Shown here in pieces: positions 1,042 through 20,284 of a stretch of DNA of 57,447 nucleotides (positions are counted from its first letter, which is position 1; the number at the start of each line of letters is the position of its first letter). This stretch comes from an uncultured delta proteobacterium (lineage in GTDB: Bacteria > Desulfobacterota > RBG-13-43-22): contig CAWDKY010000039.1 in the NCBI GenBank assembly GCA_963802945.1, positions 1 to 57,447 of the forward strand, written 5' to 3'. The position numbers and the translations under genes were made by a program. A model generated the notes under the pieces. The model had not been told where the DNA came from. It saw nothing but the letters and a program-made list of their open reading frames with translations, and did no database searches.

Positions 1042-1049
1042 TAGACATT

Positions 1050-1283: not shown

Positions 1284-1500
1284 ATATAGGTAGTGGGCGC
1301 ATTCCCTGTAGTGTCGTAACTGCGCTTGTCGAAGTTTTGATGTGGGGTGCTTTAATAGAAAAATCCTTTTTAAGGAGCCCATCTTTTGATCGACTATTTT
1401 GCCTGGCCGGGCAAGAGAAGTTTAAAGAAAAATCACTTACCATAAGTATTGTTTTATGTTAACTACTAACAAATTTTAAACAATTTCAATAGGAGGGAAT

Positions 1501-1965: not shown

Positions 1966-1968
1966 TTC

Positions 1969-3024
1969 GCCAGTTCATTAGTAAAATGCAATATTTGGGA
2001 AAGCAGAAAGGTTTATGCTATCCTAAATGTCTATGGCAAAATAATACAAATAGGTATCCCAAGCCGAACGTGAGCAGGTAGCTCTCCTTAACTGCACTGG
2101 GAGTAGAAAAGACTCGGGACAATAGGAGAAGCGATCAGGCGGGACAAAAGCACGATTTCCCGAGAACTCAAACAAAACTCCACTCCCGAATATAAATGCT
2201 ATACACCCTGCCGGACGCAGGCTCGATCCTATGATCGAAAGAATCAGCCCATACGCACCAGCGGCTCAAGAATGGCCTGATCGAGCCGTATGTTCGAAAA
2301 AAGATGGCCGTAGGTTAGTCGCCGGAGTTAATCGCCAGACAATTAAGGGTTGACAATCCTAGATATTCCATCAACCATGAGACCATCTACCTGTATATCT
2401 ATTATCCCCAGACCCATGATAAACTGGAGTTGATCAATGACTTACGCCGTGCCCACAAGAAACGGAGATCCAAAGGCTTCGGCAGAAAAGAGCGAAAAAC
2501 CAAGATTCCCAATAGACTTTCAATTGATGCCCGACCCAAACTCGTTGATCGTCGCCTTCACTACGATCAATGAGAGGGCGATAGCCTAGTCTCCCAGAAA
2601 AGTAAGGCGGCTTTAAACTCCTTGACCGAGAGAAAGATCCGACTCCTCCTGCTCTCCAAGTTTGATCGGAAGGGCGCTGCCGAAACCAGTAAGGCGACAT
2701 CTCAAAAAGCTTTCGGGAATTGGCAGAAGGACATTGATCCTGGACAATGGTACCGAGAACTCCAAGCATGAAGAGTTGACAGCCAGGCTCGGCATCAAAT
2801 GCTTTTTTGCCCATCCCTATTCAGCATGGGAGCGGGGTACCAATGAAAACATTAACGGCCTTATCCGTTGGTATTTGCCAAAGGGTACGGACTTCAGTAA
2901 AATTAACAAAGAACAAATTAAACAGATCGAATATCTGATGAACAGTCGCCCCAGGAAGTGCCTGGGATTTAAAACTCCTCTTGAAGTTGCAGCCTCAAGC
3001 GTTGCACTTCGAACTTGAATTCGG
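1969..3024 (+). mobile_element. Degenerate IS30-family element with transposase pseudogene
   Basis: Fragments in several frames: RDKSTISRELK (HTH), SINHETIY, EGDSLVS, LDNGTE, ERGTNENINGLIR, NSRPRKCLGFKTP, terminal VALRT. Imperfect terminal IRs at 1969-1992 and 3001-3024. Confidence 0.88.
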
Positions 3025-3293
3025 GGAGCTTTAAAATGGACGTTGCAATAAAAAGCTGGCGAATATTTCAAATCTTGGTTTTTAAAAAATTGACTTCTGA
3101 ACCATTATTTCAAAACTTTCTAACTATGCGCATGCGGAAGTATAACAACGTTTTTCCAGAAATGGTAGTCCGACATTGATAGCTTTGCAAGTCGGCATTA
3201 GGTCGCTTACGTCTGCATTGTTATAGAATTGGTGCGTCTTGGCGGCAATACGAAAAGCCGTAATTTCTTGGATTCACGGGTAAGGGTTATTTT

Positions 3294-4271
3294 ATGTCCA
3301 TACAACGCAAGCTTATTTCAATCGTTGCTCCTTTTTATAACGAGGTCGAAGGGGTTGAATACTTCTATCAAGCTATTTGCTCCATATTCAACCAAATTCT
3401 AGGCTTTGACTTCGAGGTGGTTTGCGTAGATGACGGTAGTCGTGACGACACGTTGAAGAAGTTGATAGAACTAGTTGACCGAGACCCGCGGTTCCATGTA
3501 ATCGAACTCTCAAGAAACTTCGGTAAGGAACCTGCACTTACGGCAGGTATCGATGTTGCTATGGGTGATGCGGTTATACCGATCGATGCGGACCTTCAGG
3601 ACCCACCAGAATTGATCCCGACTTTGATACAGGAATGGCAGCAAGGGGCAGAAGTTGTGCTTGCTTGCCGAACAGATAGAAGTTCGGATACATTCCTCAA
3701 ACGGAAAACGGCTAAGATGTTCTATCGGTTTCACAACAGACTCTCTCCCACCAAAATCCCTGAAAACGTCGGTGACTTCCGCCTCATGGATCGGGTCGTA
3801 GTCGAAGCCCTTAAGCAACTCCCAGAGCGGCAGCGTTTCATGAAAGGCTTATTTTCTTGGGTTGGTTTTAAAACAACAACAGTGAATTACACGCGAAATT
3901 CACGTGCAGCAGGTACAACCAAGTTTTCAGGTTTGAAGCTTTGGAACGTTGCGCTTGAAGGTATTACAAGCTTTAGCACTACACCGCTCAAGGTATGGAC
4001 CTACATTGGAAGCGCTGGCGCTCTTTTAACTTTTGCCTATGCCATGTTCATTATTCTGAGAACGTTAATACGCGGTGTAGATCTTCCTGGTTATGCGTCC
4101 TTATTGGTTGCTATTTTGTTTTTTGGAAGTCTTCAATTAGTCGGTATTGGCATTCTTGGTGAATATATGGGAAGGATTTACATGGAAACAAAGCAGCGAC
4201 CAGTTTACCTTATTCGTAAGCATTACAAGGCCGATATTTGCAAGCATCACGAAGCCAACAATGAATCCTGA
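3294..4271 (+). CDS. gtrB: GT2 bactoprenol glycosyltransferase, GtrB-like
   Basis: VDDGSRD, LSRNFGKE, IDADLQDPPE, GDFRLMDR, two C-terminal TM helices, GEYMGRIY.ETK.RP. Confidence 0.9.
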   Translation: MSIQRKLISIVAPFYNEVEGVEYFYQAICSIFNQILGFDFEVVCVDDGSRDDTLKKLIELVDRDPRFHVIELSRNFGKEPALTAGIDVAMGDAVIPIDADLQDPPELIPTLIQEWQQGAEVVLACRTDRSSDTFLKRKTAKMFYRFHNRLSPTKIPENVGDFRLMDRVVVEALKQLPERQRFMKGLFSWVGFKTTTVNYTRNSRAAGTTKFSGLKLWNVALEGITSFSTTPLKVWTYIGSAGALLTFAYAMFIILRTLIRGVDLPGYASLLVAILFFGSLQLVGIGILGEYMGRIYMETKQRPVYLIRKHYKADICKHHEANNES

Positions 4272-5001
4272 TGCATATCTGGAAATGGCGGATACCGAGG
4301 CTCGTCATTGGTGGTTCATTGGAAGAAGAGCCATAATGTCATATATCATCGGAGCCTTCGAGTTGCCACCCAGCGCAAGAATTCTCGAAATAGGTTCAGG
4401 CACAGGTGGAAATCTGGAAATGTTGTCTTCCTTTGGGCAGGTCAGCGCTCTGGAGATGGATGCGACAGCTCGTTCGATAGCTGAGAGAAAGACTGGTTTT
4501 CGTTTTGATATCCGACCCGGTTTCTGTCCAACAGACATCCCATTCATTGGCGAGAGATTTGACCTCATTTGCCTTTTTGATGTTTTGGAACACATTGCTG
4601 AGGACGTAGAAACACTCATCACAGTGAAAGGGCTCCTGTCCGATGGAGGGAGGGTTTTGATAACTGTACCCGCCTATCACTGGCTTTGGGGCGCTCATGA
4701 TAAATTTTTGCACCACAAGCGGCGCTATTCTGCAGCGGAGTTGCGTCAGAAAGTGTTGGCTTCCGGTTTTAAACCTTCCAAGCTCACATATTTTAATACC
4801 TTTTTTTTCCCACTAGTGGCTTTCGTGCGATTCAAGGATAGGTTGCTCGGTAACTCATCAGCAAGCGGCACCGGCATCCTGCCTGCACCCATCAACCAAC
4901 TTTTTGCCGGTCTTTTTGGATTAGAACGCTTCATAATCGGGAAATTTAACCTTCCATTCGGCGTCTCGTTGCTGTGTGTTCTTCAATCTGAGCACTCGTG
5001 A
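4261..5001 (+). CDS. Class I SAM-dependent methyltransferase (type often found next to gtrB)
   Basis: Likely start ATG 4261 overlapping the gtrB end; HWWF.GRR, ILEIGSGTG, FDVLEHI, HDKFLHHKRRY, LPFGVS. Confidence 0.88.
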   Translation: MNPDAYLEMADTEARHWWFIGRRAIMSYIIGAFELPPSARILEIGSGTGGNLEMLSSFGQVSALEMDATARSIAERKTGFRFDIRPGFCPTDIPFIGERFDLICLFDVLEHIAEDVETLITVKGLLSDGGRVLITVPAYHWLWGAHDKFLHHKRRYSAAELRQKVLASGFKPSKLTYFNTFFFPLVAFVRFKDRLLGNSSASGTGILPAPINQLFAGLFGLERFIIGKFNLPFGVSLLCVLQSEHS

Positions 5002-5003
5002 GA

Positions 5004-5375
5004 TGACGTCTACTCTGCTGATAGGACAAGCATGGCGCTTTGCAATCTCTAGGCTGCTTGTTCAGTTTATGTGCCCGTTGCAATCTATTTTTTTAATTTC
5101 GTGCTGCATGTTCCGTCCCTTGCTAATGGATTTGCGTTTGGAGTGGCAACGGTCTTTTCTTATATGATCAATACCTTCTGGAGCTTCTCTATCCTGCTGC
5201 GCAGAATAAATCTTCAACGTTTTGTTTTGATTACTTTAATTGGATGCTTTCTTGCTGTGGCAGTTTCTGAAACCGCTTAGTACTACGACTTGCACTATAT
5301 GATGGTATTAAATTAGTTGTTTGTACGGTTTCGCCAGTAACGTTTCTCCTTCATAGCTTTTGGACGGATCAATGA
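5004..5375 (+). pseudogene. gtrA: GtrA-family flippase, frameshifted with internal stops
   Basis: QAWRFAIS in one frame, ANGFAFGVATVFSYMINTFWSF in another, and a PVTFLLHSFWT tail near 5335-5370; stop at 5278. Confidence 0.75.
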
Positions 5376-5426
5376 AATTTATTTATGTTCATTTGTCATT
5401 GGAAACATTGACAGAGGTGTTACAGA

Positions 5427-7272
5427 ATGTTTGAACAGGCCAACTATTACCTTGGACTTACATCTATCAAGGTGCTAACAGTTTACTTTTTTTACATAAA
5501 CCTTGGCTTCTTGCTGTTTGGCTCTGTTGGGCTTTTTGCAGAGAAAGTTACAAAAATTAGGATTCCTACTGTAACAAAAATATTGGTCGGATATGTGTTT
5601 TATACTTCATTGGCATGGTGGCTATACAAATCCGGAAATTCAAAAATCATATTGCCAACATTTTTTCTGTTTGTGCTTTGTATTGTGGGTTATGCGCTTA
5701 TAAATATTAATCGAAAAAAGCTTGCGCTCAACAAAATATTTTCCCTATTCTTGGATTTTCAAAAAAGGCTTACTCCACTTTTTGTTATCGAGTTGGTTTT
5801 GATTTTGTTTTGGGCTGGATTTTTAAATGACAAGCCATACCATATTTTGGCTCATGGTAATAATGATGTATATTTTTGGGGTTTTATGTCTGATCATGTA
5901 ATGGGGGTATCCAATTTAGAGAGAATTGCAGGTGGGCGCGATTTTTTAAAAATTGTTATTGACTGTTTTGGCGTATATAGTTGGCTTGGACTCATGGGGC
6001 AGTTATCCATGAAAAGTCATTCTATAGAGGCGGTGATGTTGTTCCAGCTGTCATTGTCGGTATTATTGGCGTGGCTTATTTATGAGCTTTCTAAGGTTGT
6101 TGTTGGGGTTACTAGGCTTGCAGCATTTATTCCGGCATTTGTGTTTTCTTTTAATCCTTTATGGGTTTATATTTTTACTAATAATTTTTTATCCCAAATG
6201 ACGGCAACTTTTTGTTTTTTGAGTTCCATTTATGTTAGTGGTTTATCAGAAGGTTTGGCATCAAAAAAGAAAAACAATATACTTTCCGGTTATCTATTAT
6301 ATGTGTGTTTTGTGTTTTCTTATCCCGGTCTTTTGGTGCCATATATCGCATTCGTTTTGAGCTCGATAGTTGTATTCAATTATTTTTTATGTCGAGCGAG
6401 AGGATGTAGGCCTTGGAAAGAAATGGCGAAGACGATAACTGGTGTTACCGTTGGAATTTTACTCGGGGCATTGATTAATTACGATTTAACGTCTTATGCG
6501 ATAGGCCGTTTTTTTGTGCTCTCTAGTGTACGGGCCGGATGGCCGCTCTCATTTTTAGACCCTCGAAACTTAATTGGGCTGATTAGCTATTCCCTAGACC
6601 AAACGGTTTTTTCAAACTGGATCACATATTTGTTTTTGACTTCTTTGATTTGCTTTGTATTTATTTTGCGTAATTACGGGATTAAAGAGCGATCGCTCTA
6701 TAAAGCAAGATATGATTCATTATTGTTTTTATCGGTCATCGCATTAATTGGATATCTGGGGGTTTATTATATTACGGGGGACGGTTATCAACAATGGAAG
6801 TTTGCTTCTTACTTTCCCTTTCCACTATTACTTCTAGTCGGAGTTAATTACTTTGCTCCAAAAAGTTATGTTTAAGAAGGTATTTTTTTATCTGATTTTC
6901 TTATTTGTCATTGTTGGTGGCATTAAGCAACTAGTTCAACGAGAGAGATTATATGTGCCATCAAATGACTTTATTGCGCTGCAATCTTTGGATAATAAAA
7001 AATACGATTCGATAACTTTGGGATTGGAGCCTTACAGGGGTATTATGTTGGCGGTTAACTTTTTGGGTAACGTGAATTTGTATTCGATTGAAGATTCTTA
7101 TTTACCAAAAGTGGAATTCAGCCCAGAGCGAATAACGTCTAAAAATCCGTTGTTAACTACAGAAGATTCATGTCTTCGAAGTATGGCTATTGATTTCATA
7201 AAACTAACGAATAAATTGATTTTGATAACAAAGGTTCGGCAACTTGATAAAAACCAATCTTGTCTAAAATAA
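5427..7272 (+). CDS. Multi-TM membrane protein, GT-C/GtrC-like; probably one gene split near 6860 (ORFs 5427-6875 and 6853-7272)
   Basis: About 12 hydrophobic segments, GNNDVYFW loop, YQQWKF motif, overlapping downstream ORF with one TM plus a soluble domain; AT-rich. Confidence 0.6.
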
Positions 7273-7401
7273 GTTTTAAAAATAGCCCTTCGTCTTGAGT
7301 TATGGCAAAGAAATTTCGACCAAGAAATTGAATGAACTGGTATAACGTGTACAACTTCTTAGCATTAACTACGCCGCTTTTTTCTTGCTATTTTCTGCTT
7401 C

Positions 7402-7683
7402 GTGTCTTCCGCCCTGCTGGAAGATCAGAGAGCATTCTTATTTTCTTTTGCCTGTTCGCAGCCCATATGGATCATTAAGCGAGACAGATCGAGCCAGAAA
7501 ATCTTTTTGCGAAGTAACGGCGATGCACTAGTTATGTCTGTTCGGGTTATTGGTTTGCCACCAAGCGAGCTTGCCGAGATCAGCATTGAAACCGATGACA
7601 CGGCATCCTCCCTTGGGGACCGGGATACTCGAAGGTCAGCATGGATGGTATGTAACGTAAACATCAATCCGGTCTCTCCCTAA
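7402..7683 (+). other. Possible remnant of a C-terminal periplasmic domain of a glycosylation protein
   Basis: SSLGDRDTRRSAWMVCNVNI loosely resembles the DxRxLG-type tail; no convincing start. Confidence 0.25.
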
Positions 7684-7745
7684 TCATCTGCCTTGCATTC
7701 TTACAACCCCATAACAGTAAACTGATAAATCCGGTATAAGATACC

Positions 7746-9218
7746 ATGCTATTTACAACCCCGACGTTTCTTTTCTTATTCCTACCGATTTTTTTCCTGG
7801 CGTATTATCTGGCACCCAATCTAGGATGTTGGCGCAACCATATTGCTCTGCTTGCCAGTTTGATTTTTTTCTCTTGGGCGGAGCCTGTTTATGTATTTTT
7901 ATTAATAGTTTCAGTCTACATTGATTATCTAATATCAAATCTGATATCAACAAACTCGGCATCGTCGCTTTCGAAGAAGAAGCTCCTTCTCTGGATTGGT
8001 ATTTTTTTGAATGTTGCAGTCCTCATTGCATTTAAATATACATCATTTATCGTATCGGAGGTCCTCATACCACTTAAGTTGTATAGCAGTCAAATGGCGG
8101 ACGCGAACTTCCCTCTGTTGATGGGCATATCTTTTATCACATTTCATAGAATCAGCTACTTGGTTGACTGCTTCAAGGGAACTGCAGCTCCTTCGGAAAG
8201 TATTTATGACTATGCCTTGTATATCTTCTTGTTTCCTAAGCTCATTTCTGGTCCCACAATTCTGTACCACGATATCGACGATCAAATTCATCGGAGAATG
8301 TATGCAAACAGTGCATTCCTGGTCGGATCTTTCCGCTTTTGTATCGGTTTTTCGAAAAAGGTGCTGATAGCAGATCCGTTAGGGCTAGTCGCAAATCGGA
8401 TATTTGCACTGCCTTTGAATGAGTTATCAATTTGGTACGCATGGGCAGGTGCTTTTGCTTATACGCTACAAATTTACTTCGATTTTTCTGGTTACTCCGA
8501 TATAGCGATTGGTCTGGGTCGTATGATGGGATTTCGATTTCCGGAGAATTTTAATCGGCCATATACCTCATTGAGCATTACTGAGTTCTGGCGCCGCTGG
8601 CATATTACCCTATCCGGTTGGATGCGATTATATCTGTATATCCCCCTTGGCGGGAATAGGGTTTCAAAAACAAGAACTCTTGTTAATCTATGGATTGTTT
8701 TTCTCATTTCCGGCTTTTGGCATGGTGCAAATTGGACATTTGTTGTATGGGGTGCGTACCACGGGCTATTTTTGTGCATCGAAAAATATGCATCAGAAGT
8801 AGCGCCTGCAGCAAAAAAGTATCTTCCATCTTTTATCCGTTTCCCAGCGACCATGATAATTGTGCTATTTGGATGGGTAATTTTTAGATCCGCAACACTT
8901 TCTTATGCCATTAATTTTATGAAAGTGATGGTCGGTTTTTCGAAACCACAGTCATGTCTTCAGCCGTGGGGCTTGTTATTTGGAAATCGCGAGTTATTCT
9001 TATTAGTTATTGGTTCAATCATTGTTTTCTTTAAGGTTCCCGGCAAACATCTCAGGCTCCCCGCCTGGTTCTCAAGTGCATGGAGCGAGTCAATGACGAT
9101 TGGCGGAGGACGTGTTCAAATTTTTACGACTTTCCTCGCAACAATTGTACTGTTCTTGTACTCTGTCATGGCAATGCTTAGTTCAGAATATGTACCATTT
9201 CTTTATTTTAGGTTTTAG
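7746..9218 (+). CDS. MBOAT O-acyltransferase, AlgI/PatA/DltB-like
   Basis: GISFITF, QIYFDFSGYSDIAIG, ENFNRPY, EFWRRWHITLS, SGFWHGANWTF, terminal PFLYFRF. Confidence 0.93.
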   Translation: MLFTTPTFLFLFLPIFFLAYYLAPNLGCWRNHIALLASLIFFSWAEPVYVFLLIVSVYIDYLISNLISTNSASSLSKKKLLLWIGIFLNVAVLIAFKYTSFIVSEVLIPLKLYSSQMADANFPLLMGISFITFHRISYLVDCFKGTAAPSESIYDYALYIFLFPKLISGPTILYHDIDDQIHRRMYANSAFLVGSFRFCIGFSKKVLIADPLGLVANRIFALPLNELSIWYAWAGAFAYTLQIYFDFSGYSDIAIGLGRMMGFRFPENFNRPYTSLSITEFWRRWHITLSGWMRLYLYIPLGGNRVSKTRTLVNLWIVFLISGFWHGANWTFVVWGAYHGLFLCIEKYASEVAPAAKKYLPSFIRFPATMIIVLFGWVIFRSATLSYAINFMKVMVGFSKPQSCLQPWGLLFGNRELFLLVIGSIIVFFKVPGKHLRLPAWFSSAWSESMTIGGGRVQIFTTFLATIVLFLYSVMAMLSSEYVPFLYFRF

Positions 9219-9221
9219 TCC

Positions 9222-10439
9222 ATGGGGAAAAAACAGGATTTATTATATATAGTGCTTTCCGGGTTATTTATTTTATTACTTCTACTTCCTTCTCTACAGT
9301 ATTTTTTTCGGCTAATCCCGGAAGGAAATCTTTACGGATATGTTGAAAAAAAAACGACCAAGCCGGGCAGCATTGTGCACGGCTGGTTCGATAAGAGGCT
9401 GCAGCGATGGTGGGAAGAAACATTTGATAATAATATAGGGTTCAAGACTTTTTGTGTTAGAATCTTCAATGAGATAAATTTTCGGCTCTTTTCTGAGGCA
9501 CCGCAAATTCGATTGTATTCAACAAAAGCCCACGGGTTGTATAGTCGAATGTCGATTGAAAGTTTGAATTATGAGTTCACCAACCACGAAATGCTATCGA
9601 AGCAATATGTTGAATTTGCTCACAAGCTTATTGAGCTTCAAGGATTACTAGAAAAAAATGGCAAACATTTCGAGGTTGTTATTAGTAGTAGCAAAGCCTA
9701 TGTACACCCAGATGGATTGGGTAAGCGATTTCTTATAAATACCGATAGCAATATCTTTTCAAAAATTTCAAGCCTTGGGAATGAACTTAAAAAACTTAAA
9801 GTTAACGTTATTGACTCTGGACCGCTTCTTCGCCAACTTTATATGCATGAATTAATTGAGACTCATCCTTATTCGGGTGTCCATTGGAATTATTATGCAG
9901 GATGCATCGTGGCGCGTGATCTACTCAATGATGCAAAAAAATTATTGAAGAATACTCCTATCTTAAATTGTGGCAGTCCTGTTTATAAAGAATCGACAAT
10001 GGTTGATGTAGATGGTCTACTGCTTCTCAATGTCCTCAGTGATGTCAACATCCTTCGCCCGAGTCCCTATCCATCTCCGACTATTGAGTCTTTTGGTGGT
10101 TACAAGCCGAAAATTTTGATAATCGGAGATAGTTTTATGGGTCAGATGGTATTTTCGCTTATGGAATCAGTCGCCTATTCACGGCTCGTCACCAGTAATT
10201 ACTTTAGCACACGTGAAGTTCACTATCAACCGATTGACTCGCCATGTGAAAAATCTGAGTCGCTCTCAAAACAACATATTCAGGCCTCAGTAATTAATGA
10301 TGCTTTAAATAGTGATCTGATTGTTTTACAGATGGTTGATTATAACGTATCGAGATTTGGTTATGGTTTCGTCGACTCTCTCTTAAAGTATTTGAAGCTC
10401 TCCCCCAGGTTACAGCGGAATTTAAAAAATCAATCATAA
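9222..10439 (+). CDS. AlgJ/AlgX-like SGNH O-acetyltransferase partner
   Basis: N-terminal TM anchor, GVHWNYYAG, IIGDSF; immediately follows the MBOAT gene. Confidence 0.75.
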   Translation: MGKKQDLLYIVLSGLFILLLLLPSLQYFFRLIPEGNLYGYVEKKTTKPGSIVHGWFDKRLQRWWEETFDNNIGFKTFCVRIFNEINFRLFSEAPQIRLYSTKAHGLYSRMSIESLNYEFTNHEMLSKQYVEFAHKLIELQGLLEKNGKHFEVVISSSKAYVHPDGLGKRFLINTDSNIFSKISSLGNELKKLKVNVIDSGPLLRQLYMHELIETHPYSGVHWNYYAGCIVARDLLNDAKKLLKNTPILNCGSPVYKESTMVDVDGLLLLNVLSDVNILRPSPYPSPTIESFGGYKPKILIIGDSFMGQMVFSLMESVAYSRLVTSNYFSTREVHYQPIDSPCEKSESLSKQHIQASVINDALNSDLIVLQMVDYNVSRFGYGFVDSLLKYLKLSPRLQRNLKNQS

Positions 10440-10480
10440 AATCATATGGCACTATGGGTATTTTTTAAAGGAATACTTAA

Positions 10481-11659
10481 ATGAGAATCGGGGTAAATTG
10501 TTTTTCGCTACTGGCCAACATAGGGGGAATGAACCAGTATTTTATAAATCTTTTTAATGAAGTCCTGGATCATGGTTCTGAGAACGAATATATTTTTTTC
10601 TACTCCGAACAAAATATCGACGAACTCAGGAAATTAAAAAATACAAGTTGGGAGAAAAATGGGGTCTTATTAAAAAGCCAAGAAGATATTTTAAACCATC
10701 TTAACCGAATGGATCTTTATTTCTGCCCTTTAGGGGCGCTGTGGCCGAGGCCTTTGCCTTTACCAACGGTTGTTACCATCCCGGACATTCAGGAAGTTTT
10801 TTATCCCCATTTTTTTACCGAACTGGAACTTTATTACAGAGCTTACCATTACCGCGGCTCGACTCAAATTGCCGACCGGGTAATCACTATATCCCGTTTC
10901 TCCAAGGAGACCATCGTCAAGCAACATCGAATTCCCACCAAAAAGGTTATCGTGGCCTACCCCTATATAGACCCAATTTTTTTTAGCGCTAAAGGACAAC
11001 GGGCTGAAAATAATAGAACGGTCCCATTTTCTGAATTCATCTTATACCCGGCCAATCAATGGCTCCATAAAAATCATGACGGACTTCTTAAGGCCATTCA
11101 ATTGCTTAAAAAAAGAAGGGTTATGATTAACGCTATATTGACCGGTCACGAAATGACACAGGGGTATCCTTTAAAAAATAAAATAAATGAATATGGGTTA
11201 TCGGAACAGGTTTTTATGGTAGGATATATTTCGAAAGAAGAACTGGCCGGCCTTTATGCCAGAGCCAGAATGATGATTTTCCCTTCTTTCTTTGAAGGAT
11301 TTGGAATCCCTCTTTTAGAAGCCATGGCCGCTGGTTGTCCGATAGCCGCTTCCCGGACCACATCTCTCCCGGAAATCGGAGGAGAGGCCGTGGAATACTT
11401 TGATCCTCATCAATCGGAAGATATAGCCCGGGCAATAGAGTATTTATGGAATAATCCGGAAAGACGGAGGGAATTGGTTCAAAAAGGATTTAACAGGATA
11501 GAACGGTTTTCCGTTTCAACTTTTATCCAAAATCATCTGAAAGCCTTTGAAGAGGCCGTCCAATCATTTTCTATTCGCCGTTATTATTGGAATCGATACT
11601 GGGCACATCCTTATCATCGTTTCTGTATTAAATGGAAATATCGTGAAATATTAAGGTGA
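10481..11659 (+). CDS. GT4 glycosyltransferase
   Basis: VVTIPDIQ, YPANQWLHKNH, FPSFFEGFGIPLLEAMAAGCP. Confidence 0.93.
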   Translation: MRIGVNCFSLLANIGGMNQYFINLFNEVLDHGSENEYIFFYSEQNIDELRKLKNTSWEKNGVLLKSQEDILNHLNRMDLYFCPLGALWPRPLPLPTVVTIPDIQEVFYPHFFTELELYYRAYHYRGSTQIADRVITISRFSKETIVKQHRIPTKKVIVAYPYIDPIFFSAKGQRAENNRTVPFSEFILYPANQWLHKNHDGLLKAIQLLKKRRVMINAILTGHEMTQGYPLKNKINEYGLSEQVFMVGYISKEELAGLYARARMMIFPSFFEGFGIPLLEAMAAGCPIAASRTTSLPEIGGEAVEYFDPHQSEDIARAIEYLWNNPERRRELVQKGFNRIERFSVSTFIQNHLKAFEEAVQSFSIRRYYWNRYWAHPYHRFCIKWKYREILR

Positions 11660-12139
11660 TAAAAATGAATAGTCACAAAGACCAACTCCTCCCGTCACCT
11701 ACGGGTCTCTTCGTTCTTAATGGCCGCCAGAGCTACCTGGTGAAAGTCAGGATTTGACTATACAAGCATCGTCAAGTGTGATGATGACTTCTTCCTGAAA
11801 TGTCGATTTTGAATTTTGACTCTTTATACTAGATTACAAACGGTAATCAATTTGCACAGTCCAGATAAAAAGCAATTTCTTATCAATGGTTCTCTCGGCG
11901 ACCCTTGCGCCTTTGGGGTGAACAGTAACTATCTTTCCAGATAACTGAATTTTTACCTTTCTTCGTCATTTGTGAAGTTAACATTTCTTTTCTTGTTGAA
12001 TCAGGTTTCCGGGCTTAATTGCCGGTTGAAATGATAGCTGAACAGATCGTCTTTTTTTGAATAAATAAGTATCCCGATTTTTTGCTATTATAATAAGCTT
12101 ATTTTATTGAATAAGCGAGATAAATAGTTAAGAGAAAAC

Positions 12140-12421
12140 TTGACCCCTTTATTAATGCCTGACCTCATTGATCTTCACCAGGAGAGTTTTTCCATGAAAA
12201 GGGAAGAGCTGGCTTCAATGAATATTGCCTCTCTACTCGACAAGAAACAACGCACCAGAGCGCAGAAAGCCATAGAAGACCTTAAGCAGACAGGCACTCA
12301 AAGACCGTTGACTGAATATAAATTAAGATTCAAAAACGGTAAAGAGATCCATATAGAAACTAAACTGGGTGTTAATAACCAAAAGATCAATCTTAGAACC
12401 TACCTAATGGCCCTCCGTTAG
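12140..12421 (+). pseudogene. Probable PAS-domain fragment
   Basis: REELASMNIASLL...EYKLRFKNGKEIHIET resembles a PAS core plus PAC; no complete architecture. Confidence 0.4.
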
Positions 12422-12833
12422 TACCTGAAATAAGCCAGTATTTTGCCTGTAAATTTTTAGTGTTGTAAATGGTTAATTTTTGTGATATAAAACTTAAGGA
12501 GTAAGCACAAGTTGCTGATTGTTCCTACATACTATACTTAGCTTTTTGTAACAGAAGTGGAAAGGTGCCCGGCAGACCACAAAAAATCCATCTTAAAACA
12601 ACTTACCGATGGGTCATTCATTTGCCGAACAAAAGGGGGGCATCAAAAAATTCCGAGACGACGCCTCCAAAGAAGATCAGGTCTTGCTGGAGCTTTTTGT
12701 CATTAGGCCAACCTTTGAATTTTTAGAAGGCTACTGGAGCTAACTATGAAACGGCGGCCACAAGAATGTTTAGAAAATGCGGCTGCTCTCTCTGAAGAAC
12801 TGGTATAACTTCTAGGGCCAGGTCAGGAAAAAA

Positions 12834-13748
12834 GTGACGAAATTACCTTTAGTCACCATTATTACTCCAACATATAATTCAGAAAAAACAATTGAAACAT
12901 CTATCTTAAGTGTTGCCAATCAAAGATACATCAACAAAGAACACCTTATAATCGATGGTCAATCCAGTGATAACACGTTGGATATTATAAAAAAATATGC
13001 TGCCAAATATCCTCATATCAAATGGAAGTCTGAAAAAGATGACGGTATTTATGAGGCAATGAATAAAGGAATTGATTGGAGTAGCGGCGAATGGGTTTAT
13101 TTTCTGGGTGATGATGATATTTTTTATGATAACGATGTGTTAGTAAACATCTTAACTCCTGAGGTTTCCAATTTGGATGTCATATATGGTAATGTTCAAT
13201 GGGGCGAAACAGACCAAATATATGATGGGCCTTTTTCACAACTAAAATTGATGGAAAAAAACATTTGTCAACAAGCCATTTTTTTCAAAAAAAATGTTTT
13301 TACTCAATTAGGAGAATTTCAAACAGAGTATGATTCGTGGGCTGACTGGGTATTCAACATGAAATGGTTTAATAGTGAAAATATCCACTGGAAATATGTT
13401 AAAAATGTTATCGCAAAGTTTAACACAACAGGGCACTCTTGCCAAAAAGCGGATAAGGCTTTTTTAAAAAACAGAACAAATTTAATCCAGACTCATTTCC
13501 CGATTCATTATTTTGAACTAATTCAAAAAATAACAACCCTTGCTGAAGGCGATGGACAGATCGTCGGTCTTAACCAGGCATTAGCCGAGTGTGAGGCTCG
13601 AGTCCATGGACTTAAAGCTGAACTAACCAGAATTACATTGTCGCGTTCCTGGAAAATGACCAAGCCTCTTCGTTTTGCCGGCCGCATCCTGCGCGGAGAC
13701 TGGGCTGCCGTTCGAGCATCTATACACTCCCGCAGAAATGCTAAATAA
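12834..13748 (+). CDS. GT2 glycosyltransferase (WcaE-like) with coiled-coil/SxSWxxTxPLR tail
   Basis: IIDGQSSDNT, SEKDDGIYEAMNKGI, FLGDDD; tail SRSWKMTKPLR. Confidence 0.9.
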   Translation: MTKLPLVTIITPTYNSEKTIETSILSVANQRYINKEHLIIDGQSSDNTLDIIKKYAAKYPHIKWKSEKDDGIYEAMNKGIDWSSGEWVYFLGDDDIFYDNDVLVNILTPEVSNLDVIYGNVQWGETDQIYDGPFSQLKLMEKNICQQAIFFKKNVFTQLGEFQTEYDSWADWVFNMKWFNSENIHWKYVKNVIAKFNTTGHSCQKADKAFLKNRTNLIQTHFPIHYFELIQKITTLAEGDGQIVGLNQALAECEARVHGLKAELTRITLSRSWKMTKPLRFAGRILRGDWAAVRASIHSRRNAK

Positions 13749-14117
13749 AATTCATTTATCACTGAATAAGAAACATGTGGGAATTTAGCAACTAAATTCA
13801 AATAGCTCATTTTTAAAAAGTTGATTTTTTAAACCATTGAGATATCCTAGCGGTGCAACTACAACTGCAAGAAATGTAGCTATTCCAAGACTAATGTCAT
13901 TCTCTCACCTCTATCTAAGGCTTTCTCGAAAATCTTCTTGCTGCGCCTCGGTCCTTTGGCCAGGCTGCTAACCTAGCCTGATTTTCTTTGTTTCTCGGAT
14001 AATATTGATGCGGCCAGGAGCGAAGATGACGGCTTACCCCGTTATTAAATTAATTTAAGGATCAGAGACCAACATGAATGTAATAGGACCTTTGGAAATA
14101 GCGGTAAAGAAATCCTT

Positions 14118-15058
14118 ATGACCAAACAGAATAACAGTTGGGCCGTTGGCGCGGTTATCGTGATCTACCTCCCTGAGCAGGAAGTGCTGGGCCGTCTGCT
14201 GCGGGCACTGGTGGGGCAAGTCGCTTATATGGCTGTGGTTGATAACGGAGCCCTGGAAAGCACACGCTCTTTCCTGCAAGGCCTGGCAGCGGAATGGCCC
14301 TCACTGGAAATTTTCCCCCAAGGGCAGAATGTGGGAGTCGCCGCTGCCCACAATATAGGAATTGCCCGGATGCGAACCAGGGGATGTACGCATGTACTTC
14401 TGCTGGATCAGGACAGCATCCCGGCTCCGGATATGGTGGAAAAACTGTTGCACGCCTGTCTGAAACTGGAATCGGAAGGCAAACGGGTGGCGGCGGTGGG
14501 ACCCGGCTACCAGGATCCTCGTACCAACCACACCTCATTTTTTGTGCGTTTCGGCTGGCTGGGATTCAAGCACATCTATTGCGATCAACTGGATAAGGCT
14601 CCTATTCCCGTCGATTTTCTGATCTCCTCCGGCTCCCTGATACCCATAGCTACCTTAGACCAAGTGGGTGGAATGGATGAGCAGTTGTTCACCGATCATG
14701 TGGATACGGAATGGTTCCTTAGGGCGGCCTCGCGGGGTTATCGTGCCTATGGCCTTGGCGAGGCGAGAATGGAGCACAGCCTGGGTAAAGGCGCCGCCAT
14801 CCGCCTTTGGCTGGGCCGGTGGCGTTATATCGCCCTTCATAGCCCCTTGCGGCATTACTATATGTTTCGCAATAGTATTCTCCTTTACCGAAGGAACTAT
14901 GCTCCTTGGAAATGGATTTTTCCGATTTGATCCGACTTACTTTAATATTCTTTTTCTTTTTGGTGGTGTCTCGGGATCGCCTTGAGCAGGGTCGTATGAT
15001 GTTAAAGGGTTTATGGGATGGGGTTAGAGAAAAAACAAATCCGTCCCGATCAGTATAA
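14118..15058 (+). CDS. Rhamnosyltransferase-like GT2 (RfbF type), frameshifted near 14920
   Basis: NVGVAAAHNIG, LLDQDS, LISSGSLI, DHVDTEW, RHYYMFRN; the expected tail (MLKGLWDG) continues in another frame to about 15058. Confidence 0.85.
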
Positions 15059-15998: not shown

Positions 15999-17786
15999 TT
16001 ATTTACCAAGCAGCAACAACAGCCAGGGCATAGCCTTGCCAGAGGTTTTAGAGCCTGTAAGCGTCTGATCGGCCAACAGATTGGCTCCATTGAAAGAACC
16101 CCATCCGGTAGCATTGTCATAACCCTTTTTGGCCGAATAATACAGGTTGTTGCTTCCGTCGGCGATGTCATGAAAATCCGTTTGATAATTTGCGCCTTTC
16201 CCAATCTGGTAAATCAAAGGATTGGCAAATCCCAACGTTGCCTTCCCATTAGCAGCGCGTAGCTGATTGACGCGCGCGGTGAAAGCCGCCCAGAGGGGAG
16301 CAGCACAGCTCGTGCCGCCATAAAGCCACCAGGCGCCTTCATAATAAACATAATAGGGACTATCTGCGACGGAAGCGTTGAGCGAAACATCCGGCACGTT
16401 CCGCATGGTAGCTGAGGCCGCGGTTCCAGTTCCTTGTTGCCAAGAGGGAATTGACCATACCCAGCTGACACCACCGCCACTGGCCCCGTAAGAGTCATTC
16501 CAGGTTGTTTCATGATTGTATGACCCGTCTGAGTTGACAAAAATCGTTGTCCCTCCCGCTCCAACCATATAAGGCTGAGAGGCAGGATCATCGACGCTGA
16601 GAGTAATACTATTGTCATAGGCGCCCGAGTCGCCCGAGGCCGCATAGATGGATTGCCCTTGTGCCGCCATTTGCTGGAAGATGGTATTCTCGCTGTTGAG
16701 AACCGTCGAGGAATTATCCCCTTCATCAAGCCCCCAGCTCGTGCTCATCTGTTTGGCCAGGTTATCTGTGGCCATTCTGTTATAAATGTCCACCGTCCCC
16801 GCATCCGTGTTCGGGCCTTCATAGACCATGATCTTGCTCGCACCCTGAGCCAGCGCCATCTGAAGTTCAATGTCAAGTGTCACTTCGTCCTCACCACAGT
16901 GGCCGCAAAGACAATAAGCGTAGGGGGGAGGACCACAGGTGGGACCGCCGTCAACCAGGACGTTTTGCAGCGTTATCGTTGGCAAACCAAAATAACTCGC
17001 ATAAGCGCTCACATCAGAGGAAGTGTACGAGGCGAGTTCGAATAAGCCAAGCGTTTGGCCGAACCCCTTGGCCGATACGCCGGTGAGGTTGTAAGCTTTT
17101 AGGATGTCGCTGGGTCTCAAATAGATACCGGTGCCTGTTCCTTTCGGCTGAGGCGATCTTGGTGAAAATCCCTCGGCAGAAACACGGCGGCTATGGGTAT
17201 GCCGGACGGCTGCATTGTCCAGACCAATCAGGCCGACAATAAGGGAAGCAATGGAACCGGGAACTTGAGGGTCATCGTCAGGGGCATAAAATATTCGGTT
17301 ATCCGGCCCTTGATAATTATTAAGATGCAACCCAAAGACAGATTCAATCACGGCTGCTGTGCCCGATACGTCCAGAAGGATACGGTTTGGATGAGTCCCG
17401 GTTATCTTAAGTCCCTGGCTTGTCGCATAGGCAGCGACGGTATCATAATCGCTCTGTGTAGGTCCAAATCTGTCGGTAAACTCCTGGGAGGTTAGATAGT
17501 GGCCATAAAGCGGATCAGTAGGATTGTAGATACGTTTCAGCAGTCCGTCCAACTCTGGCTGGTTGCGCAGCGGCAAAGAAAAAGCCAGGGAAATTTCGGT
17601 TTTGGAATCCAGCCTCTCTATCCACTTGGCCTTGGCTATAGCCTTTGCCGGGACATGACCGGGTAGCCTTACCATGGAAGGAACGGGACCCGATAAACAT
17701 GGCGTTGCCACCAGACCCAGGAGGATGATAAGAGCAAGTAAAAACACGCCTATTGGGTTGGAAAAATGAAGGGATGCCATCTTCAT
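15999..17786 (-). CDS. Secreted S53 (sedolisin/kumamolisin) protease with pro-domain
   Basis: Signal peptide; activation domain (YLTSQEFTDRFGP); EVTLDIE, ASGDSG, GGTSCAAP, Ca-binding DI..GSN...GYD..TGWGS; C-terminal KAMPWLLLLLGK. Confidence 0.95.
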   Translation of the reverse strand: MKMASLHFSNPIGVFLLALIILLGLVATPCLSGPVPSMVRLPGHVPAKAIAKAKWIERLDSKTEISLAFSLPLRNQPELDGLLKRIYNPTDPLYGHYLTSQEFTDRFGPTQSDYDTVAAYATSQGLKITGTHPNRILLDVSGTAAVIESVFGLHLNNYQGPDNRIFYAPDDDPQVPGSIASLIVGLIGLDNAAVRHTHSRRVSAEGFSPRSPQPKGTGTGIYLRPSDILKAYNLTGVSAKGFGQTLGLFELASYTSSDVSAYASYFGLPTITLQNVLVDGGPTCGPPPYAYCLCGHCGEDEVTLDIELQMALAQGASKIMVYEGPNTDAGTVDIYNRMATDNLAKQMSTSWGLDEGDNSSTVLNSENTIFQQMAAQGQSIYAASGDSGAYDNSITLSVDDPASQPYMVGAGGTTIFVNSDGSYNHETTWNDSYGASGGGVSWVWSIPSWQQGTGTAASATMRNVPDVSLNASVADSPYYVYYEGAWWLYGGTSCAAPLWAAFTARVNQLRAANGKATLGFANPLIYQIGKGANYQTDFHDIADGSNNLYYSAKKGYDNATGWGSFNGANLLADQTLTGSKTSGKAMPWLLLLLGK

Positions 17787-18243: not shown

Positions 18244-18561
18244 TCAATGGTAGGATATGGTGAGACTGACGGATACCGCTAAAATCAAGACATACTTTCC
18301 TAAGGACATTGCCGTCAGGGCAGTCGCCAAAAATTGATTCGCTTGGCCACTTGGGGCAACCATATATTGACCCGTAAAACTCCCATTAGTTGCTGTTAAA
18401 CAGATAAAGGCATTGCCCGCCCATGGACCGGCTGAAACTACGGTGGCATAATAAAGATTCTCAGAAGCCTGAGTTTCGGATTTTAAGGCAAAAAAAGTGA
18501 TCACCATCAACCCTACTAACATAAGGATAATAAATCTCTTTTTTGTGATTTTCATGGTCAA
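18244..18561 (-). CDS. Small secreted hypothetical protein
   Basis: SD aaggag, signal peptide ending TQA, about 70-residue mature part with NQFLATALTAMSLGKYV helix. Confidence 0.75.
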   Translation of the reverse strand: MTMKITKKRFIILMLVGLMVITFFALKSETQASENLYYATVVSAGPWAGNAFICLTATNGSFTGQYMVAPSGQANQFLATALTAMSLGKYVLILAVSVSLTISYH

Positions 18562-18766
18562 TCTCCTTTGATTGAGGTAGTTTCGTATTCAGCCCTAGCG
18601 GGTCTTATTATTTGGGGAGCAAAATAATACCGGGACAGTAATTTTTTTATATAATAATATAATCGGAAACGAATTGTATTTCAACGGGGAGGTAAACTTG
18701 ATTGATCCTTAGCTACCCACGGGCTTAAGCCCGAAGCCCTCACTGTTGATTCTGATAGTCATCGAG

Positions 18767-18815
18767 AGGAAAGGAAGAGGTCCGATCAGCAACGGATCGC
18801 TTCCTTTCCCTTTTT
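18767..18815. terminator. Hairpin downstream of the Tyr-rich gene (terminator or mRNA-stabilising stem)
   Basis: aggaaaggaag...cttcctttccc inverted repeat; the T-run is on the + strand only. Confidence 0.55.
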
Positions 18816-18834
18816 AGATCCCTAAACAAACTTA

Positions 18835-19755
18835 TTAATAACCTTCGTAGCAATAATAAGCGTCATCAGCGTCATTATAATACCAGGCATAATACCCATA
18901 AAGTTGAGCATAATAAGAATAGGTAGTGTCAACCCAGGTATAGAGTTCATAGGAAAGGCCATAGCCGCCCCAATATGTAAACCCCGCGGCGTGTGTTATA
19001 TAATAATAGCTATAATATTCATAGCTGCCACCATAATAGTAGGCATAATAAGAATATATATAGCCATAATAGGAATATAAATAACCATAATAGCTTAGCA
19101 AAAATGTGGGATAGGCATAAGGGTCACTGACCGTTAGGTAAGTATAGTATTGGTAGATATACCAATAATAAGCATAAAGGTAACTATAATACTGGTAATA
19201 ATAGGCATAGTAACAGTAGGTGGAATACTTTGGGCTCTGAATCCCGGCCTTACTCGAGGACGGCAACAGCGAGTCCTGAAAGAGTTTATTCTGGGAAGAG
19301 GTCAGGATTTTGGCCAGCCCTGTAGTCATGGCCTGGTTCCAGTTGGCCATTTGGGTCAAATTGGCATCATCTTTTTGAAAATTATGGCTACGTCTATTGC
19401 TTTTTTCGGCACTTAGATCACTTACATCGCCCAAGGTAATCTTAGGGGCCAGAGACTGGTTGGCGTTCAACAACCCTTTGATGCTGGTTTTTTGTTGGTC
19501 CGTTAGAGAATTAGCCAATTGTTTGGCCAACTCACTCTTGGTAGTGTCGTTTAGATTCATGGCCAGGCTGGCAGCCCCCGCTGGGACTGGCGGATTGTTA
19601 AAATCAAGATCCGCCGGGAAATTTTTAATCGTTAAGGCTCCCTCTTGACGAGTGGAATTCATATCTCCGGCATAGACGACGGCCACGGATATGACGAAAA
19701 AGATTGCGAGGAGTAAAACCCCACCAAGCATTCCTTTTTTCTTCAAATTTTTCAT
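18835..19755 (-). CDS. Secreted pre-pro-protein with an extremely tyrosine-rich C-terminal domain
   Basis: SD aaggag, Sec signal peptide (VYA|G), polar domain with two LTxxQ motifs, then 130 aa with about 55 Tyr by manual count. Confidence 0.85.
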   Translation of the reverse strand: MKNLKKKGMLGGVLLLAIFFVISVAVVYAGDMNSTRQEGALTIKNFPADLDFNNPPVPAGAASLAMNLNDTTKSELAKQLANSLTDQQKTSIKGLLNANQSLAPKITLGDVSDLSAEKSNRRSHNFQKDDANLTQMANWNQAMTTGLAKILTSSQNKLFQDSLLPSSSKAGIQSPKYSTYCYYAYYYQYYSYLYAYYWYIYQYYTYLTVSDPYAYPTFLLSYYGYLYSYYGYIYSYYAYYYGGSYEYYSYYYITHAAGFTYWGGYGLSYELYTWVDTTYSYYAQLYGYYAWYYNDADDAYYCYEGY

Positions 19756-19850
19756 CGTGTTTTCTCCTTTTCTAATTTGGTTTAGTTACAAATTTATAAA
19801 CTAAGCCACAACGTCTTAAAACATTTAATGTAGACTTCCATCACCTCCTC

Positions 19851-19878
19851 TTAGTATTGACATTTTAGTATTGACATT
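19851..19878. repeat. Perfect 14-bp tandem duplication ttagtattgacatt x2
   Basis: Read directly at 19851-19864 and 19865-19878. Confidence 0.9.
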
Positions 19879-20024
19879 AGATTTTAATAACCCCTATTAT
19901 AAATCCCCCTGCTCCTGGATCACTTCCCCTCCAAGGGCTGAGTTTCCAATTTCCCCGGTTAAAATATCAACATATCCGTTAGGATTTGTCAAGTAAAAAT
20001 AGACAGAAAGTGAAGTAAGAAAAT

Positions 20025-20270
20025 TCATTCATAAATCTCCTTGGATATGGCCGAGATTTGTGCCTCAGTTAATTCGGCAAAAATAGGAAGGGAAAGTATT
20101 TCTTTTGAAGCCTCCTCGGCCTGAGGGAAATCATCCTTTTTATAACCCAGGTCCTCATAAGCCTTCTGTAAAGGCCCGGTAATGGGATAGTGGATACCCG
20201 ATTGAATTCCTTTAGCCTGAAGCGGCTTTTGTAACTGATCACGTTTTAATGAGCGAATAGCATGAACTTT
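20025..20270 (-). pseudogene. C-terminal fragment of a DegT/DnrJ/EryC1/StrS sugar aminotransferase
   Basis: Minus strand reads RDQLQKPLQAKGIQSGIHYP...YEDLGYKKDDFPQAEEASKEILSLPIFAELT...stop; no start codon or N-terminal domain. Confidence 0.85.
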
Positions 20271-20284
20271 GAATCATTCGTTCG

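Follow-up and report, generated by a model that had tools for sequence, protein, structure and literature searches.

A single open reading frame, P0001, in a 57,447-nucleotide stretch of DNA from an uncultured delta proteobacterium (GCA_963802945.1, contig CAWDKY010000039.1; the whole stretch is hereafter called the window) encodes a 306-residue protein with a signal peptide and a C-terminal half that is more than two-fifths tyrosine (Tyr). This composition is not accidental: it marks a real, conserved, rare, and patchily distributed secreted family, in which a Tyr-rich domain, predicted to fold as an up-down four-helix bundle with a short fifth helix, is joined to a helical domain that, judged from its sequence, belongs to or sits at the edge of the Spy/CpxP LTxxQ family. 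As to function, we propose, with somewhat less than even confidence, that the protein is an extracytoplasmic, disulfide-stapled, Tyr-coated binding or holding module working with secreted hydrolases. The initial annotation had read the Tyr-rich stretch as a helical bundle or fiber; its structural inference was largely sound, while the Spy/CpxP-like N-terminal half, the link to peptidases, and the predicted dimer had been overlooked. The gene comprises the following features.

18835 to 19755, minus strand: whole open reading frame P0001, 306 codons plus stop (signal peptide, Spy/CpxP-like domain, Tyr-rich bundle), from the translation and the relatives.
19764 to 19769, minus strand: Shine-Dalgarno sequence AAGGAG, 8 nucleotides 5' of the ATG, from the sequence.
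19666 to 19755, minus strand: signal peptide, residues 1 to 30 (KKK, hydrophobic core, VYA and then G), from the sequence and an AlphaFold2 helix at residues 9 to 33.
19546 to 19611, minus strand: conserved pre-motif D-L/F-x-N-x-P-V-P ... A-M-x-L, residues 49 to 70, from the alignment; residues 53 and 68 to 69 contact the partner chain in the predicted dimer.
19270 to 19542, minus strand: Spy/CpxP-type helical domain, residues 72 to 162, from the alignment and profile matches.
19492 to 19506, minus strand: LTxxQ motif 1, residues 84 to 88.
19291 to 19305, minus strand: LTxxQ motif 2, residues 151 to 155.
19219 to 19269, minus strand: linker, residues 163 to 179, beginning with a conserved LLPxP, from the alignment; a putative processing site.
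18838 to 19218, minus strand: Tyr-rich domain, residues 180 to 306, predicted four-helix bundle plus short fifth helix, from AlphaFold2 and the conserved register.
19213 to 19215, minus strand: Cys181 codon at the start of the bundle, kept in 38 of 38 modules.
18850 to 18852, minus strand: Cys302 codon in the last short helix, kept in 35 of 38 modules; putative disulfide to Cys181, from the topology.
18767 to 18810, minus strand: strong hairpin 25 nucleotides past the stop codon, with no U-tract on the minus strand, from folding (-27.6 kcal/mol and z of -2.2 for the 92-nucleotide stretch that holds it).

The Tyr-rich stretch (18838 to 19227, minus strand; residues 177 to 306) translates into exactly 55 Tyr in 130 residues (42.3%), no Lys or Arg, 8 Asp or Glu, and 2 Cys, and the heptads quoted in the initial annotation, the turns SDP, GGS, and VDTT, and the YCYY and YYCY ends are all found in it. 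It lies far beyond chance: among the 5,796 frames of at least 130 amino acids in all six frames of its own genome (4.37 Mb, 100% complete by markers and 6.7% contaminated), the next-richest 130-residue window contains 18 Tyr. In a Tyr indicator, the power is concentrated at 2.35 and about 3.5 residues, both of them harmonics of 7 residues, and the predicted molar extinction of the Tyr domain at 280 nm is about 104,000 per 16.5 kDa. That the stretch is not a DNA microsatellite, as had been stated, is borne out by Tandem Repeats Finder, which returned only one repeat inside the Tyr-rich region (21 nucleotides by 2.4 copies, 19044 to 19093) and one in the N-terminal half (9 nucleotides by 2.1 copies, 19410 to 19428). 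The 21-nucleotide duplication (89% match) encodes the adjacent heptads YYGYLYS and YYGYIYS in helix 2; it is a recent one-heptad expansion, showing that the helices can lengthen by whole heptads.

A word-indexed search yielded 17 relatives, an exhaustive HMMER scan of 1.84 billion representatives yielded 33 at an E value of at most 1e-3 (10 of them at most 1e-30), and a profile search aimed at longer proteins added 2 more; in total, the family comprises about 40 metagenomic relatives with 47 Tyr modules. Named members are annotated as hypothetical proteins, with the sole exception of one automatic label, family 16 glycoside hydrolase, and the only taxon names seen among the relatives were those of Chloroflexia or Chloroflexi metagenome-assembled genomes (MAGs). 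Searching with a 9-row alignment led to two loci in genome contigs, both from Chloroflexi MAGs, and to two in metagenome contigs. A signal-like N terminus is present in 33 of 43 family proteins, and the remaining ones look truncated, as do all of the short proteins among the HMMER relatives. Across the family, the Tyr domain contains 30 to 59% Tyr, is acidic, and is free of Lys and Arg, with an isoelectric point of about 4.1 to 5.3 in all members except P0011 (6.7). When the best candidates were scored, no full-length relative was found in 13 other genomes of the same genus (whole-genome search, best candidates per genome), in 400 other genomes of the phylum of the Chloroflexia carrier (G041), or in 150 genomes of the order of the other carrier (G042); matches the size of the N-terminal domain, at 20 to 29 bits, turned up in 5 of 40 relative genomes searched, 2 of the 5 belonging to the same genus. 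A search of public runs with positions 18600 to 20000 returned no RNA run and three DNA runs from one freshwater-sediment study, with word shares of 0.15, 0.06, and 0.00.

For column statistics, 38 full-size Tyr modules were cut out and aligned. The Tyr columns are 80 to 97% Tyr overall, with columns 187, 196, 197, 199, 204, and 286 reaching 92 to 97%, and they are accompanied by a stripe of Ala, Gly, or Ser residues spaced by 3 to 4 positions (columns 184, 188, 191, 195, 202, and 205 and their equivalents in the other helices) that holds at most 3% Tyr and, in 4 of the 6 columns named, none. Landmarks other than Tyr are conserved too, namely, D211 (28 of the 38 modules), P212 (27), H255 (26), G263 (26), A268 (33), and W274 (27). 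When the Tyr domain was aligned locally with each of the other 37 modules, the scores exceeded those of composition-preserving shuffles (median z of 13), and for 36 of the 37 the real score was not reached by any of 100 shuffles. With conservation specific to columns and the shuffles beaten, the homologues do keep the heptad register. Both ends of the two-helix short forms (P0016, P0017, and P0037) carry a Cys as well. In GC-rich relatives, TAC is the main codon for the same tyrosines (94 TAC versus 40 TAT; 50 versus 12), whereas this gene prefers TAT (47 versus 9 TAC over the whole frame), in agreement with the 68% TAT share of its genome, thus indicating selection on the protein, as the initial annotation had supposed.

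AlphaFold2 (AF2), run on a 31-row alignment, gave a whole model with a mean predicted local distance difference test score (pLDDT) of 82.9 and a predicted template modeling score of 0.80. In the Tyr domain, helices were placed at residues 180 to 208, 214 to 241, 244 to 275, 278 to 293, and 296 to 304 (block pLDDT of 89 to 96), and the breaks between helices coincide with conserved S-D-P, N-S/A-T, and G-x-S/T turns, which resemble helix N-caps. The AF2 helices and the Ala/Gly/Ser stripe in the 38 modules thus agree with a helical bundle with a small-residue face, whereas a fiber, the other form that had been envisaged, is not indicated by the models, which show a closed bundle that pairs. About 5 of every 7 positions are taken by Tyr or a large hydrophobic residue, whereas a bundle core can bury only about 2 to 3 of 7, so that many Tyr residues should lie on the surface, by geometry at least about 20 per domain. 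The even number of long helices puts the first and the last Cys at the same end, which fits a stapling disulfide, and an intramolecular Cys181-Cys302 bond probably ties the ends of the domain together.

A Foldseek search of the whole model against the PDB gave no match at an E value of at most 1e-3, and an exhaustive structural scan matched residues 176 (approximately) to 306 to generic up-down four-helix bundles only, that is, talin R4 (Z of 9.6, 128 residues aligned, root mean square deviation [RMSD] of 2.9), single-chain ROP (Z of 9.0), pectin methylesterase inhibitor (PMEI; Z of 8.8) and invertase inhibitor (Z of 7.9), both at 2 to 3% identity, claudin/TARP membrane bundles (Z of 7.7 to 8.2), and the copper-storage proteins Csp1 (Z of 7.3) and Csp3 (Z of 7.0). 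For helical bundles, a Z under about 13 denotes a common arrangement and is below the level indicating kinship. Talin R4, ROP, PMEI, and Csp1 share topology and size with the Tyr domain (Z of 9.6 to 7.3, 108 to 128 residues aligned, RMSD of 2.3 to 2.9), but identity is 3 to 6% and none of them is dominated by Tyr. An ESM Atlas search with residues 170 to 306 gave no usable match.

Two-copy prediction, covering residues 43 to 306, returned a homodimer with a complex score of 0.60, against 0.33 for the best of three controls; the mark used for this score was reached by 20 of 30 proteins solved as same-chain pairs and by 1 of 23 solved as single chains. Three dimer runs had at least 87% of their contacts in common, with a partner pLDDT of at least 82. 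Prediction thus gave a confident bundle for the monomer and a homodimer that passed its controls. The predicted interface, which also takes in the pre-motif contacts listed above, has two parts.

19075 to 19128, minus strand: helix-2 part of the dimer interface, residues 210 to 227 (D211-P212, L219-L220), from two-copy prediction.
18934 to 18993, minus strand: helix-3 part of the dimer interface, residues 255 to 274 (H255, G258, F259, W262, G263, L267, W274), from two-copy prediction.

This interface is two-fold symmetric and coincides with the least Tyr-rich, motif-bearing patch of the domain, so that two bundles are predicted to pair through the conserved non-Tyr surface of helices 2 and 3. 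Two Tyr modules are present in 9 of the 12 multidomain relatives scanned, and in a maximum-likelihood tree of the modules, the second modules form one clade (support of 92/92) within a larger clade that also holds first modules. The separation of first and second modules into clades points to a single old duplication that was kept, as would be expected if the working unit is a pair of bundles; domain counts and tree together suggest that two-module relatives form a pseudo-dimer.

The N-terminal half was compared with the Spy/CpxP family by alignment, profile, and structure. Residues L84, Q88, L151, and Q155 are invariant in 18 of 18 aligned sequences, and a 31-member family profile matched Spy (3oeo, E value of 9.1e-5; 3o39, E value of 1.6e-4) and CpxP (3itf, E value of 8.8e-3) in the PDB with both motifs aligned. 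Matches to Pfam family PF07813 are weak and subthreshold in 12 of 18 members (best E value of 9.8e-4; best score of 22.7 bits, for P0042, versus a gathering cutoff of 24.3, which no member exceeds), P0001 alone matched no Pfam family at an E value of at most 0.01, and the N-terminal domains of 4 of the 18 members gave weak matches to Metal_resist (PF13801). AF2 placed helices in this domain at residues 72 to 83, 86 to 98, 108 to 123, 126 to 150, and 153 to 162; whole-model Foldseek gave only weak rows for Spy, namely, 6bie_A (TM score of 0.43 of the target, E value of 2.4) and 3o39_A. The two halves nearly always go together: a pair or more of L[TSND]xxQ motifs lies in the 140 residues preceding 43 of the 47 Tyr modules, and no stand-alone Tyr domain was found among proteins of 30 to 167 residues. 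P167 of the linker is at least 90% conserved. The signal peptide, a predicted helical domain of about 90 residues, and two LTxxQ motifs in the same order and at the same spacing are shared with Spy, CpxP, and ZraP (PF07813; 3oeo, 3o39, and 3itf). Those known members, however, are small, stand-alone proteins that dimerize into a cradle, whereas here a Tyr-rich bundle always follows and the predicted dimer is built on it. The Spy/CpxP family thereby gains the first fused architecture found in these searches.

The company that the module keeps was examined by Pfam scans of 12 multidomain relatives and in seven stretches of DNA context, two of which are halves of one gene. Seven of the 12 relatives contain a cysteine peptidase domain, which is papain-like (Peptidase_C70/C39_2) in five (P0019, P0021, P0025, P0026, and P0031) and of the caspase C14 type in two (P0024 and P0042). 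Three (P0021, P0022, and P0025) contain a LamG-like 3-keto-disaccharide-hydrolase domain, P0023 gave a subthreshold MAM-like match, and P0020, P0027, and P0043 showed no extra domain. Among the loci, which at 26 to 37% identity are too diverged for a dN/dS estimate, one (L008) is a fused C70 form, and two single-module loci (L010 and L011) each have an S8 subtilase as a divergent neighbor. These two subtilases are homologous from the N terminus (31% identity over 347 residues) and the two Tyr proteins are also 31% identical, so that the pairing of S8 and Tyr genes must be old. In the window, a peptidase of yet another family is encoded downstream of P0001.

15999 to 17786, minus strand: secreted S53 (sedolisin/kumamolisin-type) peptidase, 595 residues, 1 kb downstream of P0001, from a Pro-kuma_activ match (E value of 2.5e-27).

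Surface-glycan clusters flank three loci, namely, the window (1 to 15 kb), a LamG form (L009) with a methyltransferase, a PMT_2-type glycosyltransferase, and a family 4 glycosyltransferase (GT4) nearby, and a two-module form split over two contig ends (L019) that adjoins a GT4, a family-4 priming transferase, Wzy_C, and an InhA-like MAM protein.

Omp85/BamA was found in the host genome, and the host is therefore diderm; with its signal peptide, P0001 would be exported to the periplasm. We propose that Sec exports the protein as one obligate two-domain module, in which the LTxxQ helical domain and the LLPxP linker would be followed by a 127-residue bundle striped with Ala, Gly, and Ser and bearing Tyr at nearly all other positions. 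Two such bundles would pair, as a homodimer here and as a pseudo-dimer in two-module relatives, and the sticky, noncovalent Tyr surface, backed by a chaperone-type domain, would capture proteins or matrix polymers in the cell envelope. The module might act as a free periplasmic adaptor or holdase or as the targeting module of multidomain peptidases. Tyr together with small residues is a minimal composition that suffices for synthetic protein-binding sites. A binding module is suggested by the fusion to hydrolases in the relatives and their encoding beside the gene here, and a binding or holding role is the most economical account of export, the chaperone-type domain, the pairing Tyr bundle, the unrelated hydrolases, the lectin-like domains, and the glycan neighborhoods.

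Several observations weigh against this proposal. Both fold and dimer were predicted for a repetitive sequence with an alignment of little depth (31 rows), and repetitive sequences can receive inflated confidence as idealized helices. The predicted dimer bypasses the LTxxQ helices, unlike the Spy and CpxP dimers. DSBA-family genes were found in the host genome but DsbB and VKOR were not, which makes the disulfide uncertain in this host. The LamG-form locus L009 has no peptidase in its context. The S53 peptidase has orthologues with 75 to 77% identity in two same-genus genomes that lack the Tyr gene, and in one such genome (G005) the slot between S53 and tsaB holds an unrelated 483-residue secreted protein; the adjacency in the window may thus be an accident of insertion and is weaker evidence than the S8 pairs. 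Finally, a binding module accounts for the fusions but is an unspecific explanation. As a separate observation, one DSBA-family match in the host genome (C17:46022-46594, minus strand; E value of 3.3e-29) holds one in-frame TGA and may represent either a selenocysteine-containing thiol-disulfide oxidoreductase or a broken gene.

Proteins are usually sparing with Tyr, and sequences such as this one are normally written off as low complexity. No Pfam model (P0001 and 18 members) or NCBIfam model (5 members) matched the Tyr domain, and no relevant paper, supplementary files excluded, was found with the motif strings or with Tyr-rich Chloroflexi, LTXXQ, Spy/CpxP, or bacterial secreted bundle proteins. 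The Tyr domain is thus without a described counterpart in the family databases, solved folds, and literature searched, while the N-terminal half is of a known family type; as far as these searches reach, a folded domain of 40 to 50% Tyr in a conserved register is undescribed. The Bacillus spore-coat proteins CotC, CotU, and CotG are likewise bacterial, extracytoplasmic, and very rich in Tyr. They are also Lys-rich and short and are cross-linked in an aerobic spore former, whereas the Tyr domain described here has no Lys or Arg, a conserved heptad register, and a Spy-like partner domain. The selected composition, its tie to a chaperone-type domain, and its repeated occurrence with secreted peptidases and lectin-like domains point to a module, so far unrecognized, that is accessory to extracellular hydrolases or envelope stress proteins of bacteria. 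Tyr-based biomaterials could take the domain as a natural template, and a dimeric Tyr-coated bundle, if confirmed, would be of interest to protein designers and envelope biologists.

The main rival to a binding or holding role, which we consider unlikely but worth serious attention, is that the protein is a precursor from which envelope or sheath material is made: the bundle would be kept soluble by the Spy-like domain during export, a peptidase would cut the LLPxP linker, and the freed bundles would self-assemble and might later be cross-linked. A peptidase link that spans four families fits such processing, for which the catalytic class is irrelevant, and the conserved linker, with P167 at least 90% conserved, and the nearby surface-polysaccharide clusters are likewise consistent with it. 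There are also precedents. Eimeria GAM56 and GAM82 are degraded, probably by subtilisins, to Tyr-rich peptides that are thought to be dityrosine linked in the oocyst wall (PMC3770453), and they resemble the present family in being secreted Tyr-rich proteins tied genetically or functionally to subtilisin-type proteases; they differ in being eukaryotic and in depending on oxidative dityrosine chemistry, no sequence relation to them being shown and their Tyr-rich parts not being known helical bundles. The synthetic peptide YYACAYY forms disulfide-bonded helical dimers with Tyr facing the solvent that assemble into sheets (PMC6382316); it shares with the Tyr domain its Tyr/Ala/Cys composition, its helicity when disulfide bonded, its solvent-facing phenols, and its assembly via Tyr faces. 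The peptide is, however, a 7-mer with an intermolecular disulfide, whereas the domain described here is natural, runs to 127 residues, has loops and a conserved non-Tyr interface, and is probably stapled intramolecularly.

Against a precursor, the models show a closed bundle and a discrete two-fold dimer rather than an open-ended polymer, and the spending of one peptidase per two modules in a polyprotein would be wasteful. The host, moreover, seems poorly equipped for cross-linking. Its genome gave no match to multicopper oxidase (Cu-oxidase_3; control positive in 6 of 14 genomes) or to DyP peroxidase (Dyp_perox_N; control positive in 4 of 14 genomes, other peroxidases not being covered by the search), and no heme-copper oxidase was found (control positive in 9 of 14 genomes); a tyrosinase search was uninformative, its control being positive in no genome. 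The protein has the very high Tyr content of oxidatively cross-linked wall proteins, but no partner oxidase of the types covered was found. These results suggest that the host is an anaerobe without the usual cross-linking chemistry, and oxidative dityrosine cross-linking, one of the roles raised in the initial annotation, receives little support here.

A second alternative, which we regard as improbable, is that the module regulates secreted peptidases, as an inhibitor in trans or in fusion or as a prodomain-like intramolecular chaperone whose tyrosines could mimic the P1 residue of subtilase and sedolisin substrates. Four-helix-bundle enzyme inhibitors are a known type, and the protease DegP is a partner with which CpxP acts. 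CpxP bears the name of periplasmic adaptor protein in the title of PDB entry 3itf. In 7 of the 12 fused forms and at three loci, the module is found on the N-terminal side of peptidase domains or next to them, and the PMEI and invertase inhibitor bundles (Z of 8.8 and 7.9) are among the best structural matches. Those matches are generic, however (Z under about 13, 2 to 3% identity), and PMEI has four Cys in two disulfides, as compared with two Cys in the Tyr domain and no Pfam match for P0001. Enzymes as different as those of serine clan SB, the papain-like type, and the caspase-like type are unlikely to share one kind of inhibitor; in many fused forms, a stretch of about 500 residues that includes a lectin-like domain separates the first module from the peptidase; and P0020, P0022, and P0027 have no peptidase at all.

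A bolder idea, for which we see only a slim chance, is that the family represents a polyphenol protein of natural origin: the folded, dimeric, helical scaffold would carry a continuous lattice of about 100 Tyr rings on its outside, and this lattice would itself be the functional surface. In the envelopes of anaerobic sediment bacteria and Chloroflexi, such a lattice might relay radicals or proton-coupled electrons, or it might be a universal capture surface, with the Spy-type domain restraining it. If true, this would be a new class of protein material without a characterized counterpart, prefiguring designed Tyr-rich peptide assemblies. A purely redox role, in which the envelope would use the Tyr array as a sacrificial antioxidant or to relay electrons coupled to protons, is highly improbable. 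The roughly 110 phenol groups per dimer would suit it, Spy/CpxP relatives are reported to belong to envelope stress responses (PMC8144458), and Tyr-rich peptide films are reported to conduct protons (PMC7677316 and PMC9044548). But no heme, metal, or quinone site is evident, none of the five contexts examined contains a redox partner gene, the strong oxidants required to oxidize Tyr are unlikely in an organism without terminal oxidases, and the peptidase and lectin fusions would be left unexplained.

That the domain binds metals or minerals through phenolate and carboxylate ligands, in a layout like that of the Cys-lined copper-storage bundles, is scarcely credible to us. The acidic, Lys/Arg-free character of the domain, the presence of Csp1 and Csp3 among the structural matches, and the weak Metal_resist matches in 4 of 18 N-terminal domains speak for it. 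The Csp matches are generic, however, and in place of a Cys-lined core the Tyr domain has only two Cys, both at its ends; Tyr, with its high pKa, is a poor ligand at neutral pH save for hard trivalent ions, the single conserved His (H255, 26 of 38 modules) lies inside the predicted dimer interface, and no metal-transport genes are found nearby. The least likely reading of all, a membrane-embedded four-helix anchor for extracytoplasmic domains, could appeal to the lack of Lys and Arg, to charges that sit mainly in loops, to octanol free energies (the best 19-residue windows of helices 1 and 2, at -11.5 and -9.3, match the signal peptide, at -9.9), to the claudin/TARP bundles among the matches, and to an even helix number that keeps all other domains outside, but it has against it negative Kyte-Doolittle means (-0.05 to -0.58), helices 28 to 32 residues long, the lack of positive-inside residues, Asp and Asn in helix columns of many relatives (in column 223, D in 10 and N in 7 of 38), and the position of E246, H255, and E270 within helix 3.

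In the window, the Tyr gene lies between a surface-polysaccharide cluster and the housekeeping run tsaB-rseP-dxr-cdsA-uppS, and a gene remnant separates it from tsaB.

20028 to 20273, minus strand: remnant of a DegT/DnrJ/EryC1 aminotransferase between tsaB and the Tyr gene, 82 codons, from a match with an E value of 2.7e-12 to profile positions 286 to 358 of 360 (the last 73 or so).

The variable slot in the sister genome and this upstream remnant indicate that the Tyr gene was inserted into a variable slot, and the remnant suggests that the slot was rearranged when the gene arrived. The polysaccharide cluster itself (1 to 14930, plus strand) encodes methyltransferases, three family 2 glycosyltransferases, one GT4, and an MBOAT acyltransferase, together with two large open reading frames without a Pfam match (5427 to 6875 and 9222 to 10439).

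Between the Tyr gene and S53 lies an open reading frame of 105 residues with a signal peptide (18244 to 18561, minus strand) for which neither Pfam nor NCBIfam gave a match. The family to which it belongs is multicopy and is present in 4 of the 13 other same-genus genomes and in none of 27 more distant relatives searched; it was considered as a part of the system and rejected, since this genus-restricted multicopy family also occurs elsewhere. The C terminus of S53 (15999 to 16031, minus strand) reads MPWLLLLLGK, and two other frames of the host genome end in MPWLLLLLGK or MPWLLLLLED (C57 near 9410 and C30 near 213893), the MPWLLLLLGK frame on contig C57 being adjoined by fragments of a copy of the 105-residue family. 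The unrelated secreted protein in the syntenic slot of the sister genome (L028:6290-7741, minus strand) ends in LPWLLLLD. By its sequence, this type of ending may be a short, lineage-specific C-terminal sorting or anchoring tag. The host genome also holds a second S53 copy (C30:211370-213107, plus strand), 93 to 94% identical and in two frames (residues 1 to 441 and 441 to 581), which could be a frameshifted paralogue, a strain variant, or an assembly error. In the sister genome G008, the S53 orthologue (L029:5949-8885, plus strand) is 978 residues long and carries C-terminal FG-GAP/VCBS repeats and a weak TcdB_toxin_midN-type match.

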